A stretch of DNA of 63,556 nt, the filler included, from Rhabdomonas costata (Eukaryota), in NCBI GenBank assembly GCA_019059605.1. It is 41 parts of 41 records of this genome, joined end to end, with 100 filler letters (N's around TTAATTAATTAA, not from the genome) between each part and the next. Parts side by side here need not be neighbours in the genome. Positions count along the whole stretch, not along the records: positions 31,061 to 32,513 come from JAHMHO010015559.1; 40 more parts are not named here. One strand, written 5' to 3'. Positions 8,802-50,211 of the stretch are shown here, piece after piece (within the stretch, counting starts at the first letter, position 1; each line of letters begins with the position of its first letter). A model generated the notes under the pieces. That model worked only from the letters and a program-made list of their open reading frames with translations. It did not search any database and was not told where the DNA came from. A program made the translations under genes and the position numbers.

Positions 8802-9600
8802 GTGTGTGCCACGTGGCGAAAGTCCTTATCAACTGAAGTGCATCTGCGTGTGGAGGCGCGGAGGTGAAGCTCTAGAAAAGCACATCGAGGGTTGAGTTTG
8901 ATCCTTTGTTACGGGAAACTGCCCCCCCCCCCTGCACCCGCTCTGCGCAGGGCATTCAGTTTAGCGCGGCGCAGTGTGTTCTGGTGCGGTCCTCGCGTGG
9001 GGCATGTGCCTCGCTGCCTTTGTCTGCCCCGGTGGGGGAGTCTCGGCCGCTGCGTGGGTTCGCGGCCTCGACCCCGTACGCGTTCTTCTCTTCTGCCTTC
9101 CGTTTTCTTTCCGCCACCTGATGACCAGTGCACGCAGAAACGCAAAGTGCCTGAAGCAAAGGGGACACCACGCACAGTTGACGACCCCTGCCACCATGCC
9201 CGCTGAAATGATTCAACGNNNNNNNNNNNNNNNNNNNNNNNNNNNNNNNNNNNNNNNNNNNNTTAATTAATTAANNNNNNNNNNNNNNNNNNNNNNNNNN
9301 NNNNNNNNNNNNNNNNNNCTTAAGTGTGCTATATGTACCCACCGGAGGATAATAGTATTTCTCTTGCACGGGTTAGGGGGGGGCTCTGCCCCCCCGGCAA
9401 CTTACTTAGGGTTAGGGTGCGTTGCTACCTTATCTACAGATAATGTTTTCTTTGTTTGATTTGGAGCCTTTGTGCATGATGAGGGGAATTTGAGGGTGTT
9501 TTTTTATAGAGAAATATGGCATGCTTTGCTCTCCTTCAATCTGTTCGACTTGTGGAAGTTGGGGGTGGTGACAGGGATTTGGGGCGGGGGAATGTGCTGC

Positions 9601-9963
9601 CTGAGAAGCGGTGTAGATCACCACCTCGAACCGACCCTTGACGTGCTCCCAGAACTCCTCCAGCCCGGGCCTCTTCATTCCCCACAGCTGTGGCGTGTTT
9701 GCGTGGTTGAAGAAACAGAAAATGCCACCATGCGATGACACACACTTCTGGATAGTGGCCCTTCAAGAAAGACTTTCATTCGAAGGAATGCCGTTTTCCC
9801 TCCACTTCAAACATCCCCAACTCCCACGAACACCAGACCTCGTACGTACCGTGTAGGTGGTTCCGACTTTGAAGGTGAACTCTGGGTTCGGGATATCACT
9901 GCGGTTTGTCGAGAAGTGCACCAAAGTCTCGTCCATATCAAGCACCAGAGTTGGCCGAGGCCC
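9601..9963 (-). CDS. NIF/FCP1-SCP family (CTD small phosphatase-like) HAD phosphatase, two exons
   Basis: Exon 9963-9850 has TLVLDMDETLVH (DxDxT motif). Exon 9687-9601 reads LWGMKRPGLEEFWEHVKGRFEVVIYTASQ. The GTACG...CAG intron joins them in frame. Confidence 0.88.
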
Positions 9964-12652: not shown

Positions 12653-13820
12653 GTCGACGAGGCGCAGCACCTCAAGAATGGCACAACGAAACTTTACTCG
12701 GCGCTGTCTGAGTTTGAGTGCAACAACTTCCGTCTTCTGATCACTGGGACGCCACTGCAAAACAGTTTGAAAGAGCTGTGGTACGCGTGTACTTTGCTCT
12801 CTGTTCTCTGTTCGGATCGGTTGCATTCGTGAGATGGGGCACTAATGTACTCGTCCACCAAATCCCAGCAAGCAAATAATGTCAATAGCAAAAAATCGTC
12901 CGATAGGCAATTCCCTACGCGACCGGATGGGTGCGGGGTGCGTCTCCTCTGAGGGTTGATAGGGACTTCAGCTGCACGGCGTACTGTATTCTGGATTCTA
13001 GTTTGTGATTGTTCTGGCCTTTTTTGTTGCAGTCATTGGATAATTAAAGGGCAGAAGCACCGGCTCCAAGTTGGTGCCTTCTTCTTCTTTTTCTTCTTTG
13101 GTCAAGCGGGGTTGAATGCTCTGTATCGTGGCTCCGGCCTGCTCATCCTGCATTCACAGGAGCCTGCTACACTTCCTGATGCCGCAGAAGTTCCCCAGCG
13201 CGGCGGACTTTGAGAGGAAGTACTCCATCCACACACCCCGCGCTGTGGAGGGCGAGGGGTGCTCTGTTGTGGTTCCAGACGCCCCCGCGGACAGCCTGCA
13301 GAGCGCTCGGATCGCCCAGCTGCACCGCGAGCTACAGCCCCACATACTGCGCCGGGTGAAGAAGGACGTCGAGCGCAGTCTGCCGAAGAAGATCGAGAGG
13401 ATTCTGAGGGTGGAGCTCAGCCCGCTGCAGAAAAGGCATGCCGGGGCAGAAACAGTAAAAGGAGAAAGAGGCGTGTCTCTTTCAAGGGGCCCGCGGGCCT
13501 GTGTTGAATGTAGAACTAGTAGGATGGTTTCTTGAAAACCATTTCAAACTCATCCTCAGCAGGCCGCCAAGAATTTACCGATAAACCCGGAGGATCATCG
13601 AAGAATCAAGACAGGAGTCCTACTTGGGTTTTGGAACTGTTGGCCAATAGAAGAATCGAGATTTTTGTCGAACCCGCTGCTGGCAGGAAACATGAATGAA
13701 TGAATGTGGAAACATGAAATGGGCAGGTACTCGCGGTGGATCCTGACTAGAAATTACCTAGAGCTCAACAAGGGTACCAGCCACACCTCCTTGCTGAACA
13801 TTGTGATGGAGCTGAAGAAG
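12653..13820 (+). CDS. CHD1/CHD2-like SNF2-family chromatin remodelling ATPase, three exons
   Basis: Exon 12653-12780 reads VDEAQHLKN...[17 protein letters not shown]. Exon 13160-13435 reads [11 protein letters not shown]...[35 protein letters not shown]. Exon 13727-~13820 reads [16 protein letters not shown]...[11 protein letters not shown]. These are classic CHD motifs. The second intron is GC-AG. Confidence 0.92.
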
Positions 13821-24748: not shown

Positions 24749-25049
24749 NNNNNNNNNNNNNNNNNNNNNNNNNNNNNNNNNNNNNNNNNNNNTTAATTAA
24801 TTAANNNNNNNNNNNNNNNNNNNNNNNNNNNNNNNNNNNNNNNNNNNNGGGGGGTGTTTTCAGCTGCAGAAGGATGAGAGACATGCGCTGATGATGAGCT
24901 GAAGAATGAGAGACAAACGAAAGCTATACAGCAACCATTTGCATCTCGCTTTCGTTTGTCTCTCATTCTTCAGCTCATCATCAGCGCATGTCTCTCATCC
25001 TTCTGCAGCTGAAAATACCCCTCGCTCTCTATGATGCCCCCAGTCACAC

Positions 25050-25826
25050 CACTGGCCATCCGAAAGGCAACGTATATAGGCGAAGTAGTGGCCACTGACT
25101 GCGGTGCCTCGGTGAACCAAAACACTAAACAGGTCGTACAAGCACTCCGAGGGTGCGGAGTGCACCTGCGACCCACCTGGAACAAAAGACAGCAAAGTAC
25201 ATGAGGTATGCGAATTGCTATCTGCTCTGCTATTTGCAGTTATTTTGATCGTATGTAACTTGGACTTAAAATAAGCAAACCAGAGTGAGTGATGACCAGT
25301 GACGCAATGACACTATGCCTAGCAAAGTTTTTTCCACGGGCACACACAGACACGCAGTGACATATGCTTCTGATGGTACAGAGCTGCTGGTGGTACATTG
25401 TTTTCTGAAGCTCCGCAGGGGGCGGGTTGGCGAACAACACGCACCCTCTCCTGAATCAGTGGTTGCTGTGATCCACGGGGAGACGTCCAGAACAAGAGGA
25501 ATGGCGATCGCATCGTTCAGCTTGACGCGAGTCATGGTTTTAAAATCGAAGTCAAATCGACGGAGCTGCAGCCTGACGGGAATGAAAGAAAACAGCCACA
25601 AGCAACAGTTTTCTACTCGAGAACTGAAACCGAAACAACTGTGCAACTTTTTTTTTGCAATTTCCAAGACCACCGGTCCGTGGCAAAAAGCAACACACGT
25701 GAGGATCTTCGGAATCATCAAGAAAGACAGCCCCTTGCGCGCATTCTGCTTGCAGGCGCAAGCCTCACAAGCATATTGGTTTGCCCCTTCAAGCAGCTCA
25801 GACTGCACAAAGTTGTCCAACGCGTC
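25050..25826 (-). CDS. Ubiquitin C-terminal hydrolase (USP47/USP7-like), three exons
   Basis: Exons 25826-25699 (DALDNFVQSELLEGANQYACEAC...ARKGL...PKILT), 25572-25445 (LQLRRFDFDFKTMTRVKLND) and 25176-25050 (YDLFSVLVHRGTAVSGHYFAYIR...QW, the His box). All introns are GT-AG and in frame. Confidence 0.92.
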
Positions 25827-29351: not shown

Positions 29352-31554
29352 GTCAATGAAGAAAGAGAACAAACAGACACAACTGTCCCCAAGTCAAAGA
29401 AGAACACNNNNNNNNNNNNNNNNNNNNNNNNNNNNNNNNNNNNNNNNNNNNTTAATTAATTAANNNNNNNNNNNNNNNNNNNNNNNNNNNNNNNNNNNNN
29501 NNNNNNNAAAACTCCTGAAAACCCAATTCAGACCAAAAATTGCTAAAACTGGGCTTGCAAAGAGACTCAGATCAAGATAGGGGGGAAGTTCAGGTGCTTT
29601 GGGATACCAACGAGCTCGGCTGAGAATGTTTTTGAGGGTATGCTTTCCAGAACAAAGAGAGGTCACCGCTCTGTGTAGCTCAGTGTAGAGTTTTATCCCC
29701 CGAAAAACTTCCAGTAAGTCCGAAAGTGTCTCATTTTTTTTTGCACAAAAAGGCACACCAAACGAGAGCCTCATAAGTTCGCCAAAAGTGTCCACCGCGA
29801 TATGATTGTCCGTGGCACCTCAAAGAGTCGAAACTGCATTCTTAATCAGGCACTGTCGGACTAAGCTAAAAAGGGGCTGTTGAAAAACTAGTTTCCGTAG
29901 TTTCCGTATACTCTCGTTTCCTGGCGTCCAGGTGAATGCAACGAGAGGAAAGCACAAAAACTCTTCATTTTGACAACCAAAGCGGATTGTGTACAGCGTT
30001 GGGGCCGTGGCAGTCCGCAGACTGCAAATGTATCATAAATGTGAGGGATGAAAGAAAGAGGGGGGCCTGAAAAAGAAATGAGAGTGTCTGGGAACATGAT
30101 GAGAAGGAAGGGCATGGAAGACATGGGAGACATGGGGGAAACCTCAGTTTGTACGTGGAGGTGGTTTTCTTCTCGGTCTGTTCTTTGTGTGTGTAGCTTA
30201 CCTTACTGTTTTGAGATGAGGCGGGTGAGACGTTGTCCGTTTCACATCAAAATTGAGAAACACTACCACAAAAAGCAAAAATCGGACTTACACAGGTTTG
30301 TGTATCCGGGGAAATTGATCCCGCGTTTTTGCTTTAGAAAAACGTTCGAATTCGAAAAAGGACAGTATTTGGACTTGGAGCGGTTTTGAGATTGGATGGG
30401 TTCCACATTTGTGGTTGTCTCATTTGAAGTGACTTTGCCCGGGTTGCCCGTGTCAGAATCCTCAGAATCGGGATCCCGGATTGTTAGTCCTTGAATGTGT
30501 CTGAATGCAAAGAGGATGAAGCATAAAGCATAGCGAGGACAGATTTATACATGTGTGTGGTCAGTTATTCAGTCGCTATTATTCGGGATTAAAGCTCTCA
30601 CAGGTGAAACGCGATGGTGAATGACTATCGTAGTAGCAGCACGAGTTTTTGCAGGTCTATTGGTTATTATCGAAGTGCTTTTCGCATCTGGCCGGGACGG
30701 ACGCTGCCGGCAAAACAATTTCTGGTATCCTTCCACGAGTTTTAACCGCTTCTCAATAGAAATGCCGTTTTCTCTTTCACTTATTTGCAATACGTTCCTG
30801 CCTGACTCTAATTCCTGAATTCCTGGCGTTGTGCCTCTCTTTCTTATTGCGATCAGGACCCAGACGAGGTCAGGCAACTTTGCGGAATTCTCCTGAAAAG
30901 GTGCCAGGACCGGTTTGAAGAGGGCATTTCGCATGTTCCGGTATCCTCTGCCACAACACCNNNNNNNNNNNNNNNNNNNNNNNNNNNNNNNNNNNNNNNN
31001 NNNNTTAATTAATTAANNNNNNNNNNNNNNNNNNNNNNNNNNNNNNNNNNNNNNNNNNNNGATATGGAACCGTGCCTATCCAAACGTGATCACACCGGGG
31101 TTGGAAGAGGGAGCAAGATTCCGGGAATTGAAGCAGCAGGTTTTGAAAGTGACTGGTTTGGAGAAGCACGGTTCCATATCCCAAAACGCCTCCTTGCGCC
31201 TCCTTGTAAATGGGAGGGGGGGCTCCGCTCGGGGCGATTCCAATGCACACAGTTTTTGCTCCAAGCATGTCCCAAGTGTCCATGAGACACAATTCGTCGC
31301 TTCAGCTCGGTTCCACCTGTTCCACAACTTGTGGTGGAACGGCTGCTGTTCTGAGGAGCGTGGAAGAGGGATTGATTCACAATCTCTCCAGAACTTCCCA
31401 GACATCGGCGACGAACATGACATAAGAAGCACACTGAAATCGAGCATCAAAAGTATGCGAAATGCCAACCAATGGAGCGCGCAAACGACGACAAAAGGAT
31501 CCCTCCCCTACGCAAAGAAAGGAAGAGCAAAAAACCCTTAGGAGCAGGCAGCAC

Positions 31555-32513
31555 CTTTTTGAATGGCGTGAGGACCCCCTTCGAGTCATCGTAGCACACC
31601 GGAAAGACCTTCCATTCAAAGATCGTCAGGAAGGCCAGGATGGTCAGGACGGCCTGTGCCGCAATGAAGCCGTATAGCCATCGGGTATCCCCGCTCAGCT
31701 TGCGGTGCATCACCGTGGCTACCAGCACCATAACGCACTCCAGGTAGCGGGCTGCCACCCAGAGCTGGATCGAAGGGTCTTGCTTCGGTGGGAAAACTTC
31801 CATTCCCTGTGAAAATAGAGCAGTCCAGCACCAGCTCGTTTCTGGCTTGGAGTATTGCAGTCGATGTTTTCAGGCACCACCATAAACATCTGCGGGCTGG
31901 GGGGGGGTGGGAGACTGCCAAAGAGGCAGAGAAGAGATTCTGCGGGAAAACCAAAGACCAAAAGGCAGGGCATAAAAAACAAAACTGCGATGGCAAGTGA
32001 TACCGCTCAACTCGAGCTCAGAGCTCATGTCGCCAAAACCCCAAAAGGAAGGAAAGAAGGATCGAAGCAGGTCCAAAGATCCATATCGAAATTGTTCATG
32101 CTCAAGCTCAGAAATTGGGAACCGTTGTCGCCAAAGCAAGAGTGAGGTACAAAGAATGCAATCAATGCGGAAGAGTCTGGCATTCCCATGAGGAAGTGAC
32201 AAGCAAGAGGCAACGACGGCACAAAGAGCTACCATGGATCGAAGTTGGCCACACACCTACAAGCTCAAAAATAGCAAACTGTCACCGCCAAGCCACGAAT
32301 TAGCGAAAAAGAACGCAAAAACGTTGCGGAAGAGTCTAGCATTGCACTGAGGGCAGCCTCTGAGAGCTAACCTTGTACGCCAGCATGTGGAACAGGTCCA
32401 GCGTCGCCACAAACCCGTACACGCTCCCCACAGCCACCAGCAGGCTGTTCTTCGCAATATGCCGAGTGTGGAAGACCACCAGAAAGACGCAGTATCCAAT
32501 GATACCCACCAAC
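31555..32513 (-). CDS. MASE3 membrane-associated sensor domain protein, two exons
   Basis: Exon 32512-32372 (VGIIGYCVFLVVFHTRHIAKNSLLVAVGSVYGFVATLDLFHMLAYK) joins through a GTTAG...CAG intron to exon 31806-31555 (GMEVFPPKQDPSIQLWVAARYLECVMVLVA...VFPVCYDDSKGVLTPFKK). This matches the MASE3 motifs D..H.L.YKGM, QLW..ARY.E and FP.C.....GLT.FK. Confidence 0.85.
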
Positions 32514-33114
32514 NNNNNNNNNNNNNNNNNNNNNNNNNNNNNNNNNNNNNNNNNNNNTTAATTAATTAANNNNNNNNNNNNNNNNNNNNNNNNNNNNNNN
32601 NNNNNNNNNNNNNTGGTTGTGTTCGGAGCCGAGGAGTGATCTCTTGAACAGCGTCCAAAATCATGTCAGGTGTTCAGTTGCAGAGAGCAAAAAAATGCAC
32701 AGAAGCAAAACGCAGAGCAAAATACCAACCCAAAGAGTACGAGCGAATGGCTCTCGTGTTTGCAAACACGAGAGCCAATCAACCAAATCACATGTTGGGA
32801 ACGGGTCTAGAGAAATTTATTGCTATGTGAGTATTTTTTTTGCCCAAACTCCAGCGTCAGTTCCCGTGGAGACTGCACACGCGAGCAGGGGGAGGATTCC
32901 CTCGGGGTACAGGAAAGAATATCTGAGGGAGGACTGTGTCTTGGAATTGGGATCCAAAGGGGCCCTAGACAATGAGTCAAAGATCCGAATTCGAATTTAT
33001 TAATCTTTTTTTTTACGAAGGAGAGGATCCTTTTCAGATCGAGTTTTAGCACTGTGTCAAATCTCGGTCTGTGAAAATTGCGCTCTTCATGTTGCCTGCT
33101 ACCATTATCTGTAG

Positions 33115-33984
33115 GTGTTCCAGTCGTTCAAGGCAAAGTGGGAGGAGCTCAAGCCGAAGGACATTTCCCAGATGAAGACCCGGGAGGACTGCCTGGCCAA
33201 CGGGGTGCGGTTTGTTGCGGAGAAGGCGAAGGAGTTTGCAGAGCTGAAGGAGCGTGCCGCCACTCTGGTGCAGCAGACGAAGTACTTTGACATGCCAGAG
33301 CCCGCTTTTAGCGCCGTGGAGGACCTTGACATGGATCTCACGGCTATGCAGGAGATGTGGGCTCTGTACGAGGTACATGTCAAGGGGCTGTTCTTGTTTT
33401 GTCCCTTCCGCCTCGGCCTTTTGCTCATGGTCCCTTCTACTTTTCCTGGACCGGGTCATCTCCTAGCTTAGCTTAAATTGTCTCATTGAAAGTGCTTGTG
33501 TTTGGCTGGGGGAGGGGGGGTCACTGAAAGGTTGCTTTCGAGACTACGTCTTTCTCTCACCGAGACTTGGGAGACGATTTTTTCAAGGAGCAAGGCGCGA
33601 TACAAACCTCCTCCCCATGTTTACTGGTCGTAATCGTGACCACTCCCATCGTCAGCCCTTACCTCCAGCTACAGTCGCACCATGTGGGCCTAGGACTTAG
33701 TAGATCTCTACATTTTCTCAAACTCCAAACTTGTGGTCCGCCAGACCTTTGACACCGAGCTGCAGGCGCTGTGCAAGGAAGAGTGGATGGCGTTCCGCCA
33801 GCACACCTTCCACTTCGAGGACTTCCTGAAGCAGTGGGGGGAGAAGCTCCGTGAGCACAAGTCCAGCCCTGTGGTGCTGTACATCCGGGACCGCCTGGAC
33901 AAGTGGGTCGACCTGGTGCCCCTGCTGCGGCTGATGCGGGGAGATGGGTTCACCCTGGACCACTGGCTGCAGCTCTTCCGCCTG
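33115..33984 (+). CDS. DYNC2H1: Cytoplasmic dynein 2 (IFT dynein) heavy chain, two exons
   Basis: Exons 33115-33372 and 33745-33984: FKAKWEELKP...YFDMPEPAF...WALYE|TF...EEWMAFR...FEDFLKQW...VPLLRLMRGDGFTLDHWLQLFRL. This parallels DYNC2H1 (FKARW.QLKP; EDWI.FR...FE.FL..W; RGE..S.DHWL.LFR). Confidence 0.9.
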
Positions 33985-45209: not shown

Positions 45210-46816
45210 CTGAAATTTCTAAAAGTGGGCGCGAGAATGCAAGGGGGAGCTGCACGGGCGAACCACAACACTGCGCACTTCCACACCAGCACAAATCGAC
45301 AGGTGCAAAAAACGTGGGAATAGCGGATGGGGAGTGCATGGGGGAGTAGACCAGCGACTGGAGAGCATTATCTAGGGAGTTCCAAAACCAGTCGTGGAGC
45401 GCAACTGCTGTTGAACTAAAACGTGCTGCTGGGTATACAAAGCTTTTCAACAAAAAAAGGAAAAGTGCGACTGCAAATAAGGCCCCGGGATTCAATTGGG
45501 AAAATTAGTAAAGCAGGCGAAGACCAGACGCGGTGCGGCCGGAACCAACCCACTCCCACTCCCGAGTTGTATCCACACCCACCTTTGCCACATCTCGACT
45601 TCCCTCCCCAGACATTTTGGTTCACGTCCGTGAACTAGAGGGGTGGTTCACGGGGGGGGGGGGCGAGTTTCAGCCTAAGCCCGCATTTGATGACAAGCGA
45701 ACTTTATCTTCGGCAACCTCGCTGCCTGGATGCTGCCCGTGTCTCTGGAGGTTCCGGCTTTATCTCATAGTAACGCACCATTCACCTTTCCTTCCATCCA
45801 TATGTGTGTGTGTGTGCGCAACATCGCGTGGCAAAGGAATGCAAGCACATAAACCTACCAGGGCTGCTGGGTGAGGGAGAGCTTCCAGTCGAGGAGGAGG
45901 AGGTGGTGGAGCAGGAGGAGGAGGGCTGCGGGACAGGATCTCCGCAGCGGAGATGACTTCCCCGGGTAGCGGGGGATTCTTTGCAATTTTGTGAAGCCCA
46001 CCGCAAGCTTGCACATACATGTACCCACATACTCGTACCACACTGAGTAGGGTGCAAAAGGCAGATGGTAGGGCTCTTGTAAGCCAACTGGAAGCGGCGG
46101 CTCGCATGTTTTCCACGAAGTCGGCGGATTATACTTTGAAGAGAGAAAATCAGGAACGGCAGCGGGGGGGGGGGTTCACCGTTATCATTAATTTAGGGGT
46201 AGGTGACATCGTTTACTAACTGTCCTAAAAAAACATCCCACAAAGTTCAATTTAAAAAGGCTCCTCTCCATAGTAAAAAAGGGCGAATACTTCCGAAACT
46301 TTCTGGCACTCCTTGCCCGAGGGCTGGACCTGAAAGTATAGTACTCCAGCTGAAATTCCTTCTTACCCAATGCCCTTCCCTTGCTCCCTTATTAAGTCTC
46401 CAGGAGACCCCAAAAAGAGTCAAATTTGACCTAAAACGACCGTAAAAAATTTGAAAGGCAGGACTCCACATGACCCGCCATGGAGCANNNNNNNNNNNNN
46501 NNNNNNNNNNNNNNNNNNNNNNNNNNNNNNNTTAATTAATTAANNNNNNNNNNNNNNNNNNNNNNNNNNNNNNNNNNNNNNNNNNNNTGTTTTTGGTCCA
46601 ACTTGGTAGCACCGCACAAAATTACCGCAGCCAAAGCAACGTACCACGGATTCCCTTCTATCTCGAAGAAAAATCCAACAAGAACCAAGAAACCAAGAAA
46701 CCAAGAAACCAAGAAATTTCTCTCGTAGGGTTCCTGCAGTTGCCGCAGTTGCCGTGCTGTAGGAAGCAAGCTTCAAAGCAAAGCTATGCAAGCTGCAGCA
46801 CTGTTACAAGAGCTAC

Positions 46817-47215
46817 CTCCATCCCAATGACGAAGTCGACATAGGGCCTCAGCCCGTCCTTCTCGGCATTGGAACCCGGCTCCACCTCCAGGATGCGCCA
46901 CGCACAGAGAAAAGCTCGATCAATGTTCTCCCACGTGATGGAGCACCCTAGCACCCCTTGGCCGCCCCAGTGGTCGTTCGGGGTGATCGGTACCCGGCGG
47001 ACGTTCTTGACCCTGGTGTTGAACACCTCCAGGACCATGCTTTGTTGGAGATGTTCTCTTAGGTGCTCCTTGAAAAAGGGTCCGTCCTCTTCAATGGCAA
47101 CTCCGTCGACCCCGATGATGAAGTCAAAGAACGGCAGGAGACCCGCTGCATGGGCAGGAGAATTCATGATGACTCGAGAAATTTGATACCCACATTTACT
47201 CTCTTCAGCACCCAT
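46817..47215 (-). CDS. GORASP: Golgi reassembly-stacking protein GRASP55/65, first coding exon
   Basis: MGAEES (myristoylation-type start)...GYQISRV..NSPAHAAGLLPFFDFII...WGGQGVLGCSI...WRILEVEPGSNA...GLRPYVDFVIG, then GTAGC. Confidence 0.92.
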
Positions 47216-50211
47216 AGGGCACACGAGGAGGAGGTTTTCAATGAAACAGAGTTGACCCTCCAAACGAGCAACAACGAAATTCTGCAAAAAAAAAAACGTG
47301 CTGTTCTTTCAACCGTAAAATTCTTTTGCCCCACATGTGACCATTTGCAACTTTGTTTACTCTGCACTCGGCACTTAATCAGCCCTTTCGGAGAACAGAC
47401 ACGATTCAGATCCGCTTCTGGTACCAGCAAGGGGGGCCTCGAACCATTTTTATGACCTATTTTCCCGGTGCAACACAAACCTAATGCTGCGAGAACAAGC
47501 AGCTCTCCCCGGGGACATGTGCACTGCAAACCTCTCCGACACAGAGAAAGTAAAAAGGCCCATATCGCGGCTTTGCGTCATGCGTTCCCTCAAGGGGATT
47601 CTGGTCCCCTTGAAACCCCTTACACAAATACCACCACCCGGTTAATGTGTGTATAACCACCGGATGCAGTGGGTCCCTCTCTGAATTCAGCAGCAGCCGC
47701 AAGCAATCTACAGCGGCAGCGTGATTCGAAATTTGTTCAAAGCAAAGCCCCCTGAAAAATGAAAATATATAATAAATAAATAAATAGTAGATTTATTATA
47801 TATTTTCATTTTTCAGGGGGCTTTGCTATATATAATGCCAATGTAACACCACTCTACTATCCACTTTAGGTTGGAGTACTTGAGCAACCTGTACTGTTCA
47901 TACCTACCTACTGGTAATAGCGCGGGACCTACATAAGTTACTTAGCTTAGTTTCGGCTTCCACGAAACTAAGCTAAGTAACTTTTCCCCCTCTTCCCAGG
48001 ACTCTGGCACAACAACCGCTGAGCCGAAACCACCCCACACNNNNNNNNNNNNNNNNNNNNNNNNNNNNNNNNNNNNNNNNNNNNTTAATTAATTAANNNN
48101 NNNNNNNNNNNNNNNNNNNNNNNNNNNNNNNNNNNNNNNNGGGTGGTGGTGCAAGGTTGCTATGCAAGGGTCTTACCCCGTCCCCTACTACTGGGATGGT
48201 TTTGGGGATGGTAATTTCCATCCTTCGACTTAAGCGATGTGGTTCGATGTTTGTTTTTTAAGTGTCTACTCTGCCCTCATCGGCAATTTTGAATGCCGGC
48301 GGTATGTGTGCATGTGATGCGCCCGATGAGGTGCACCGATTCTGTCCACCTTACTGGGCTTCTTGCTTGGTTCCGCTGCGAATTATGTGATGTGCATGCC
48401 TTCCCTTGCACGTCAATGCTGTGACATACCAGCCTTGACGGATTTATTCCGTACAGCATACAGCTTGCATTACATTGGCTCCGTTCACAGTTGGGCTTAC
48501 TGTGCTAGCTTGCTCGTGGGCCTGATGAGAGTACATTAGATTGGGGTGATGTTTTTTATTGTTGGGGGTAGAATGTTCGCTTTCGTCAGATTGGAGCGAA
48601 GAACAACTTCTTACCGTGATAAGTTGCGAAAAAAGCGAACCCCTGCAGGATGACGCCGATTTAACAATCATGTGGAAGATACCCTTTGGGAAAGCTTTTG
48701 CTTCCCTTCTCCAAAGCGAAAGACCGGTTCACTCCTCTCTTCATCCACTTCTTCCACCCTTTTTCGAAATTCAGCTACTGGAGGTGGTGTGGTAATTCAG
48801 TGGGGTCCAAGGTTTGGATGGCTCGTTCTTTCATTTGTTTTCTCCTCACTGATGCGTGTATTCGAGCCTGATCTTCCTGGTGCTGGTGTTTGCAGGGCTG
48901 CTTTGGGGTACTCTCTCTGTTACTGTGGGTAGACCCGCAGGGAACTCATCCCTTTGCGTGTCCTCTCTTTCGGGCTTGGCCCCACTTTTAGCCCTTTTGT
49001 TTTGGCGGAGTCTTTTCTTCGGCCGTTATCGGTTCCCCTCCAAAGCGGCTCAAAAATAGAAACCTCTGGGCAAAATCCTGCGTTTGGGCAGCATTTCCGC
49101 GTGGAATGTGTGCGCGTTCGACTGCCTGATGCTTTCGGTATGTGAGCGCTGGGCTTCGCCCCTTCTCCTGCGTTTTCGGGTTTTGTACGTTTGCCCTTTG
49201 GCCTTTCGCAAATTTCCTTTTTTCAATGCGTGGGTGATTTAAAAGGGTGTTGTACGATGCTAAAACCTCCAAACATTTCAAATGCTGTCGAGGCCCGCTT
49301 ACCCATTTAATCAAAAAAACAAACCTCACAGAAAATTGCGCCCCACACAAATGCAACCACAAAGCCATTCAATCCCAAAAGCTGCCGAACCGTTCCTGAT
49401 TCGAAGGCTTATTTTGAACTTTCGACCCTTTAACTGCCCGCCCCTTCAAAGGTGGCTTATTTTATTTCAGGTATCTTCGATTAAATGGCCCGCGCGGTCG
49501 AAAAAGTCACGCCCGGAACCCACGAGATGATCATCATTATTATTATATTATTTTGTTCGCAATGAAGAAGATTCCTTTCACCAACCCCACCCCNNNNNNN
49601 NNNNNNNNNNNNNNNNNNNNNNNNNNNNNNNNNNNNNTTAATTAATTAANNNNNNNNNNNNNNNNNNNNNNNNNNNNNNNNNNNNNNNNNNNNGGGTTGG
49701 GGCTCACCCCACTTTCGAGGGACTAGCGCTTACTCTCTCGGTTTGTGCCGTTTCCTTTGCCTCAGTCCAAGGTGGGACACTTCGTCGCCCCAGGCCGGAG
49801 TGGTCCAGCGGAGATAGGGGTGGCGGTGCGGGGAAGCGAGATCAAGTGACGCTGACGAGGACTTTCATCTGCTAGGTGAAATGGATGTCCTCCAGCAAAA
49901 GAGTGCGGCTGGTACACTCCCTCTCTCAGCTGCCTTTTGCTGACATATGCATGGATGAGTGGATCTTGTGACAAACGCAAACGCGAGCGAAATTTCTTGT
50001 GTTGTCGCAACGTTTCCTTTTTCTCCTTTTCTAGCGCCCCTGGCATGTGCAGCCGCATCTTTCCTTTCCTGGGGCATCTGATCAAACTCGTGGGCTGTCC
50101 TCTGTCACTGTGTACTAAATGCATGTAATTCTTTTGCTTTAAATCCATAGAACTTTAGCTTGTGTCCTATGTCGACTGTCGCCTCCTCCCCATCGTCGGT
50201 GCTCTCCATAG

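Follow-up and report, generated by a model that had tools for sequence, protein, structure and literature searches.

MASE3 (Pfam PF17159) is, to our knowledge, a widespread membrane sensor of prokaryotes for which no ligand is known. Among the described systems closest to the gene reported here are the MASE3 histidine kinases of Desulfobacterota, Planctomycetota, Chloroflexota, Nitrospirota and Bathyarchaeia, which have the same loops (HTLAYKGMGVF, QLWxAARYxE and FPxCFxEGxGLTxFKKxSEY) and the same MASE3-HisKA-HATPase_c(-REC) architecture as the euglenid relatives of that gene (e.g. P0067, P0074 and P0103). They differ in that their genes are uninterrupted and in that many of them carry a PAS domain between MASE3 and the kinase, which is absent from the two euglenid relatives, P0001 and P0122, described below. 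We analysed a stretch of 63,556 nucleotides, spacers included (hereafter the window), from the assembly GCA_019059605.1 of the euglenid Rhabdomonas costata, in which contig JAHMHO010015559.1 carries a MASE3 coding region interrupted by an intron. We consider it probable that this contig holds two internal exons of a euglenid-type nuclear gene whose product, a MASE3 sensor, most likely forms the input part of a hybrid histidine kinase, and that the family, prokaryotic in origin, now bears introns in euglenids and has taken on a host-like codon composition.

Other eukaryotes also have histidine kinases with bacterial-type inputs, among them the plant MASE1, CHASE, ethylene-receptor and NarX-like proteins and those of Naegleria and Trichomonas; like the euglenid proteins, these are domesticated kinases of prokaryotic derivation, and according to the accessible part of one survey they are usually hybrid and act through a phosphorelay (Kabbara et al., 2018; PMC6324907). 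The same part of that survey reports MASE1 histidine kinases in early land plants and does not mention MASE3, and its Euglenozoa, represented by Leishmania and Trypanosoma only, have no histidine kinases. Proteins with histidine kinase domains have been reported in Leishmania, as far as the accessible text goes (Salvado et al., 2015; PMC4558063), and a first histidine kinase in Euglenozoa can therefore not be claimed; neither survey, in its accessible part, sampled euglenids. Our literature search turned up neither a description of eukaryotic MASE3 nor one of histidine kinases in euglenids, the five papers in which the word MASE3 occurred did not deal with the domain, and the supplements of PMC8219788 and PMC6324907 might list such proteins.

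The window consists of 41 contigs of 1447 to 1455 bp, sorted by length and joined through 40 spacers of 100 nt (N around TTAATTAATTAA; e.g. positions 30961-31060 and 32514-32613). Neighbours in the window are thus without genomic meaning, and positions 31061-32513, a contig of 1453 bp, are the only context of the MASE3 gene, which lies on the minus strand and comprises the following elements.

Exon A, 32512-32372, minus strand: 47 codons, from LVGIIGYC to LDLFHMLAYK (feature span 32372..32513, open on its 5' side where the contig ends).
Intron 1, 32371-31807, minus strand: 565 bp, phase 0, donor GT at 32371/32370 and acceptor AG at 31808/31807.
Exon B, 31806-31555, minus strand: 84 codons, from GMEVFPPKQDPSIQLWVAARYLE to VFPVCYDDSKGVLTPFKK.
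Start of intron 2, 31061-31554, minus strand: donor GT at 31554/31553, at least 494 bp up to the contig end.

The original prediction had described a MASE3 domain split by a GT-AG intron and followed by a second donor at 31554, and its coordinates, both splice features and the three motifs that it quoted are all present on the minus strand. Exon A, whose 47 whole codons are preceded by a partial one that includes base 32513, encodes the second half of transmembrane helix (TM) 2 and the whole of TM3 and ends in the conserved H-x-L-x-Y-K; exon B encodes the loop G-M-x-V-F, TM4 (QLWVAARYLE), TM5 and the hairpin loop FPxCY..G.LTPFKK. Intron 1 has a pyrimidine-rich tract ahead of its acceptor (..CTGCTCTATTTTCACAG) and contains 8, 2 and 5 stop codons in its three frames; reading through from exon A ends at a stop after 11 codons. 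The gene carries a GT-AG intron that breaks the frame, and removal of this intron restores a colinear MASE3 protein. The contig resembles the figures given for the draft genome of Euglena gracilis in the accessible part of its report (2.07 million contigs with an N50 of 955 bp, and introns of which 80% are conventional, with a median length of 598 bp; PMC6366073).

The assignment to MASE3, proposed at first from motifs, is borne out by profile searches. The Pfam model has 226 positions and a curated gathering cut-off of 31 bits, and each exon alone scores above that cut-off: exon A with 40.6 bits (E = 2.9e-10) over positions 19-62 and exon B with 62 bits (E = 8e-17) over positions 63-143, while the unspliced open reading frame (ORF) around exon B reaches 67.2 bits. 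Since exon A ends at position 62 and exon B starts at 63, the two abut exactly on a profile that was curated independently. Scored with a custom profile made from 119 prokaryote-like MASE3 domains, exon A reached 38.2 bits (positions 25-68) and exon B 60.2 bits (69-148); the score rose to 114.1 bits with the spliced product, which aligns as one domain over positions 25-148 with no gap at the junction. Against the NCBIfam model NF047874 (MASE3_PAS_HK; cut-off of 560 bits) exon B scores 32.8 bits, below the cut-off, and P0001 and P0122 have no PAS domain; the gene is therefore not filed under that family.

The closest relatives are proteins of the same organism. P0001 (EukProt EP00906 Rhabdomonas costata RCo043423, P030703; 462 amino acids, aa) was the sole match among 68 candidates in a word-indexed search of proteins of 148-2000 aa, with 68% identity along the whole length of exon B (E = 5.4e-27). 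With tblastn, its residues 80-123 align to exon A and residues 123/124-208 to exon B (67% identity, E = 3e-31), which puts the first exon junction between K123 and G124, and the protein is uninterrupted across both junctions (..TYK/GMGVF.. and ..FKK/TSEY..). As P0001 derives from a transcript and reads through both junctions, it is the best support at hand for both splice sites; the proteins of the R. costata set are predictions made from 93,852 transcripts once prokaryotic contaminants had been filtered out, as stated in the accessible part of the report (Soukal et al., 2021; PMC8219788). Past exon B, all relatives read x-S-E-Y after FKK, where genomic read-through gives VLPAPKGF... instead.

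In P0001 the MASE3 domain (E = 1.5e-55) precedes a HisKA domain (E = 4.1e-16). With exon B as the query, HMMER was run exhaustively over 1.84 billion representative proteins and gave 733 matches at E ≤ 1e-3, two of which, P0121 and P0122, were at E ≤ 1e-10. P0122 (RCo017388, P012172; 672 aa) is 56% identical and combines MASE3 with HisKA (E = 1.3e-7) and HATPase_c (E = 3.4e-20, 73 bits); its match to the receiver family Response_reg (PF00072) is weak (E = 0.024, 15.2 bits against a cut-off of 30.2). The kinase core of P0122 matches GacS/RetS-type kinases, including the solved GacS structure 7z8n (E = 3.1e-31). The H-box reads S-H-E-I-R-T-P in P0001 and S-N-E-I-R-A-P in P0122 (near residue 250), where HATPase_c is intact. 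We take the H-box histidine of P0001 to be the phospho-acceptor, and this site is asparagine in P0122, which, judged by this substitution, may be a non-phosphorylatable pseudo-kinase or a modulator similar to RetS. Both proteins share with the window gene the MASE3 sequence type (68-69% and 56% identity), colinearity over both junctions and the same clade. They differ from it in being partial proteins known from transcripts: P0001 ends inside the kinase core and P0122 has no N-terminal third of MASE3.

Two environmental sequences also match MASE3. P0121 is a 190-aa ORF (65% identity) from a 2135-bp ENA contig and P0123 a more distant ORF of 109 aa (42% identity) from a 760-bp ENA contig; they match Pfam MASE3 over positions 59-147 and 57-144 only, that is, over the span of exon B, and the ORF of P0121 reaches 24 aa before and 75 aa beyond its MASE3 match. 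This pattern would be expected from a prokaryotic gene caller applied to eukaryotic contigs with the same exon limits, and P0123 may point to another eukaryotic lineage whose MASE3 gene bears introns. A search for long fused forms, made with residues 1-235 of P0122 against proteins of 1177-3360 aa, gave 1199 candidates and none at E ≤ 1e-3. In a scan of JGI metagenomes with a four-sequence alignment of exon B, 145 stretches matched by pattern and none was confirmed.

Composition and conservation bear on whether this copy of the gene is alive. GC content is 0.49 in intron 1 and 0.56-0.58 in the exons, and GC at third codon positions (GC3) is 0.81 in exon A and 0.76 in exon B over a background of 0.51 ± 0.05; other eukaryote-type exons of the window have GC3 values of 0.85 (SNF2), 0.80 (dynein-like), 0.69 (GRASP55) and 0.59 (UCH). 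Among the 27 columns conserved in at least 90% of 58 prokaryote-like sequences, 23 are kept; the four changes are A to G, W to F, N to H and G to E, of which three are common to P0001 or similar there. The contig could instead hold a dead copy, a pseudogene or gene fragment of the MASE3 kinase family that is no longer expressed or complete. Such a copy would fit the presence of two exons only, with no third in the 494 bp downstream, the four changed columns, one of which turns G-M-G into G-M-E, and the finding that no protein of the window's own copy occurs among proteins of 148-2000 aa in a collection of 5.8 billion. We nevertheless regard it as unlikely: both exons are open over their full length, the splice signals are intact, most conserved columns are kept and the GC3 of both exons is typical of coding exons in the window, in contrast to the 0.49 of the intron. 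Moreover, the expressed P0001 has the same or a similar residue at three of the four changed columns (G, V/F and H at its positions 82, 90 and 91), which marks these changes as traits of the lineage and not as decay.

The origin of the family was addressed with a tree of 71 rows and 124 columns, obtained by a quick IQ-TREE search and containing 65 prokaryote-like rows. The window gene, P0001, P0122 and P0121 form one clade (Shimodaira-Hasegawa-like approximate likelihood ratio test, SH-aLRT, of 99; branch length of 1.82) apart from the 65 prokaryote-like rows. Within this clade the window gene is 69% identical to P0001 over 123 columns of the alignment; P0123 sits on a very long branch (2.95) and its placement is without support. 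The clade has substitutions of its own relative to prokaryotic MASE3 (A-W-N-S-R-R becoming x-H-T-R-H), and P0001 has an insert at residues 230-276. P0130 was considered as a sister sequence that might point to the donor; its SH-aLRT is only 57, and no donor is named.

In prokaryotic contigs sampled at one genome per species, 582 of 600 pattern-matched stretches were relatives. The best 80 of these 582 are 27-37% identical to P0001 and come mostly from Desulfobacterota, Planctomycetota, Chloroflexota, Nitrospirota, Bathyarchaeia and Methanoregula metagenome-assembled genomes, and exon B is about 40-54% identical to the prokaryote-like proteins listed. With prokaryotic genomes at only 27-37% among the best 80, recent contamination does not account for the gene. 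The MASE3 family of the window gene is of prokaryotic origin and was probably acquired horizontally; the data agree with an ancient transfer into euglenids, after which the gene would have been duplicated, gained introns and undergone codon amelioration, a direction and timing that we infer from these comparisons.

It could still be argued that the contig stems from a contaminating bacterium or from chimeric assembly and that its intron is an artefact, given that MASE3 is otherwise prokaryotic, as the 582 stretches attest, that the assembly is highly fragmented and that a 25-nt inverted repeat stands at one contig end. We consider this extremely improbable. The 565-bp GT-AG insert is of phase 0 and falls exactly between adjacent profile positions; prokaryotic sequences remain at or below about 54% identity to exon B (and at 27-37% to P0001 for the best 80), whereas euglenid transcript proteins reach 56-69%; and the restriction of the P0121 and P0123 matches to the exon B span looks as if the same exon limits recurred elsewhere. 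The argument of the original prediction that its introns speak against a bacterial contaminant thus holds up, as canonical GT-AG introns are not known from bacterial genes and the closest relatives are proteins of the R. costata transcriptome.

What follows MASE3 in the window copy lies outside the contig, as had been predicted: a six-frame profile scan of 2351 pieces of the whole window recovered the two exons and no third MASE3 exon (next best piece at E = 2.2), and tblastn with P0001 gave none either, every further high-scoring segment pair in the window being at E ≥ 1.3. One reading, 'CASYVMFVADVW', after an AG near 31437 was considered as the next exon and rejected; it is not hydrophobic, lacks the Glu that is invariant in S-E-Y and meets a stop.

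The suggestion that the sensor is coupled to a eukaryotic output such as an adenylate or guanylate cyclase finds no support in the relatives, whose outputs are of prokaryotic type: HisKA in P0001, and HisKA, HATPase_c and the weak receiver match in P0122. No cyclase domain was found in P0001 or P0122, and P0121, as an exon-only fragment, is uninformative. A paralogue joined to another output, a nucleotide cyclase or a protein kinase, would draw some support from the off-contig position of the window copy's output, from prokaryotic MASE3 proteins that carry GGDEF (PF00990; P0087, P0097 and P0110), PAS domains only or HisKA_3/HWE kinases, and from the large membrane adenylate cyclase families of E. 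gracilis described in the accessible part of its genome report (PMC6366073). Both close R. costata relatives are, however, histidine kinases, the window gene clusters with P0001 (69% identity across 123 columns) within the clade that bears kinases, and a cyclase domain is seen in no relative of the clade, so that we judge a different output very unlikely.

The claim of an undescribed signalling system was likewise too strong, as the relatives are two-component sensor kinases of bacterial architecture in an unusual host. From its sequence relationships, the window gene is most likely an intron-bearing, probably horizontally acquired two-component sensor, most likely hybrid, and not a new kind of signalling. 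An intron-bearing eukaryotic branch of MASE3 would show that the module works outside prokaryotes and would place euglenids among the eukaryotes with sensor kinases of bacterial type. The gain is modest: that protists and plants have acquired sensor kinases horizontally is well documented, and the architecture is bacterial.

To place the exons in the fold, we used an AlphaFold model of P0001 built with a 60-sequence alignment (predicted local distance difference test score of 85.2, predicted template modelling score of 0.72). The model has helices at residues 33-65, 67-91, 99-120, 134-161, 165-189, 205-227, 277-298 and 306-332, the last of which is continuous with a DHp helix at 334-390; residues 230-276 form the lineage-specific insert, about 45 residues modelled with low confidence. 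The window exons map to residues 80-208, which cover half of TM2, TM3, the Y-K-G-M loop, TM4, TM5 and the F-P-x-C...F-K-K hairpin. A PDB sequence search with P0122 yielded no solved MASE3 structure, its 53 matches all lying in the kinase core. A Foldseek search of the P0001 model against the PDB gave nothing at E ≤ 1e-3: rows for G-protein-coupled receptors (GPCRs) had root-mean-square deviations of 8-11 Å, and only the DHp part matched GacS/RetS. With VIA-align, all 50 matches listed for residues ~60-338 were GPCRs or designed GPCR-like folds, with Z scores of 14.6-11.6 and deviations of 3.9-5.7 Å over 196-240 residues at 5-12% identity. The MASE3 domain of the model thus superposes on the seven-transmembrane receptor fold and differs from it in the low identity and in an eighth, N-terminal helix. 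We treat this likeness in the model as a lead in shape only, as helical bundles reach such Z scores without kinship.

On this model, MASE3 would be a membrane bundle of eight helices, whose most conserved loops, H-x-L-x-Y-K-G-M-x-V-F linking TM3 to TM4 and F-P-x-C-x..G-x-L-T-x-F-K-K linking TM5 to TM6, are encoded on the contig. With a cytoplasmic kinase and alternating helices, both loops would lie opposite the kinase and would be the likely signal-receiving surface. A helix shift induced by a ligand or by the membrane could then be passed to the DHp (HisKA) helix and set the autophosphorylation of the H-box histidine, from which the phosphate would move to a C-terminal receiver, in proteins similar to P0122, and on into a phosphorelay.

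Several points weigh against our interpretation of the contig as part of a MASE3 histidine kinase gene and temper it. The contig shows 131 codons in total, and Pfam MASE3 positions 1-18 and 144-226 (of 226) lie off it together with the output domain; the kinase output of the window copy is accordingly an extrapolation from the architecture of its relatives, and its splicing and expression are likewise drawn from a related protein. The asparagine in place of the H-box histidine in one paralogue suggests that not every member of the family need be an active kinase. In the G-M-G motif, a glycine present in 93% of the prokaryote-like sequences is glutamate in the window gene, in addition to the changes at three other conserved columns. 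Finally, the tree, made by a quick search on 124 columns, leaves 45 of its 66 inner branches without resolution and supports no prokaryotic sister group.

A wider picture can be drawn from the same data, which we offer tentatively and regard as slightly more apt to fail than to hold. In it, euglenids would have a hybrid histidine kinase family of their own, with MASE3 inputs and genes that bear introns. A single acquisition from an anaerobic bacterium or archaeon would have been followed by duplication and, in one paralogue, by loss of the phospho-acceptor histidine; the family would operate a two-component phosphorelay in a phylum for which surveys report few or no such systems, and would join a GPCR-shaped input of seven plus one helices directly to a kinase helix.

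The remaining contigs are consistent with a eukaryotic genome. The window has 219 stop-to-stop ORFs that reach 85 aa or more; the 150 longest were scanned with Pfam at E ≤ 1e-4, and five had matches: the MASE3 ORF and four single exons of typical eukaryotic genes on other contigs. One further ORF is dynein-heavy-chain-like by eye and has no Pfam match at 1e-4. The window is a sparsely coding eukaryotic assembly, with these additional coding segments.

46787-47308, minus strand: GRASP55/65 exon (E = 1.4e-30).
13116-13532, plus strand: SNF2-related exon (E = 4.7e-15).
24998-25312, minus strand: UCH exon (E = 5.2e-8).
9433-9762, minus strand: NIF phosphatase exon (E = 7.2e-5).
33115-33468, plus strand: dynein-like ORF.

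Two repeats were seen on the MASE3 contig. Intron 1 contains a 28-nt direct repeat (32166-32193 and 32325-32352; 86% identical, 159 bp apart), which suggests an internal duplication. The 25-nt inverted repeat (31061-31085 and 31156-31180; 92% complementary, 70 nt between the arms) begins exactly where the contig ends; it could be a small hairpin element or a fold-back formed during assembly. Elsewhere in the window, the contig at 10869-12321 has a GC content of 32.6%, against 42-59% in the other 40 contigs, and may be organellar or repeat DNA.

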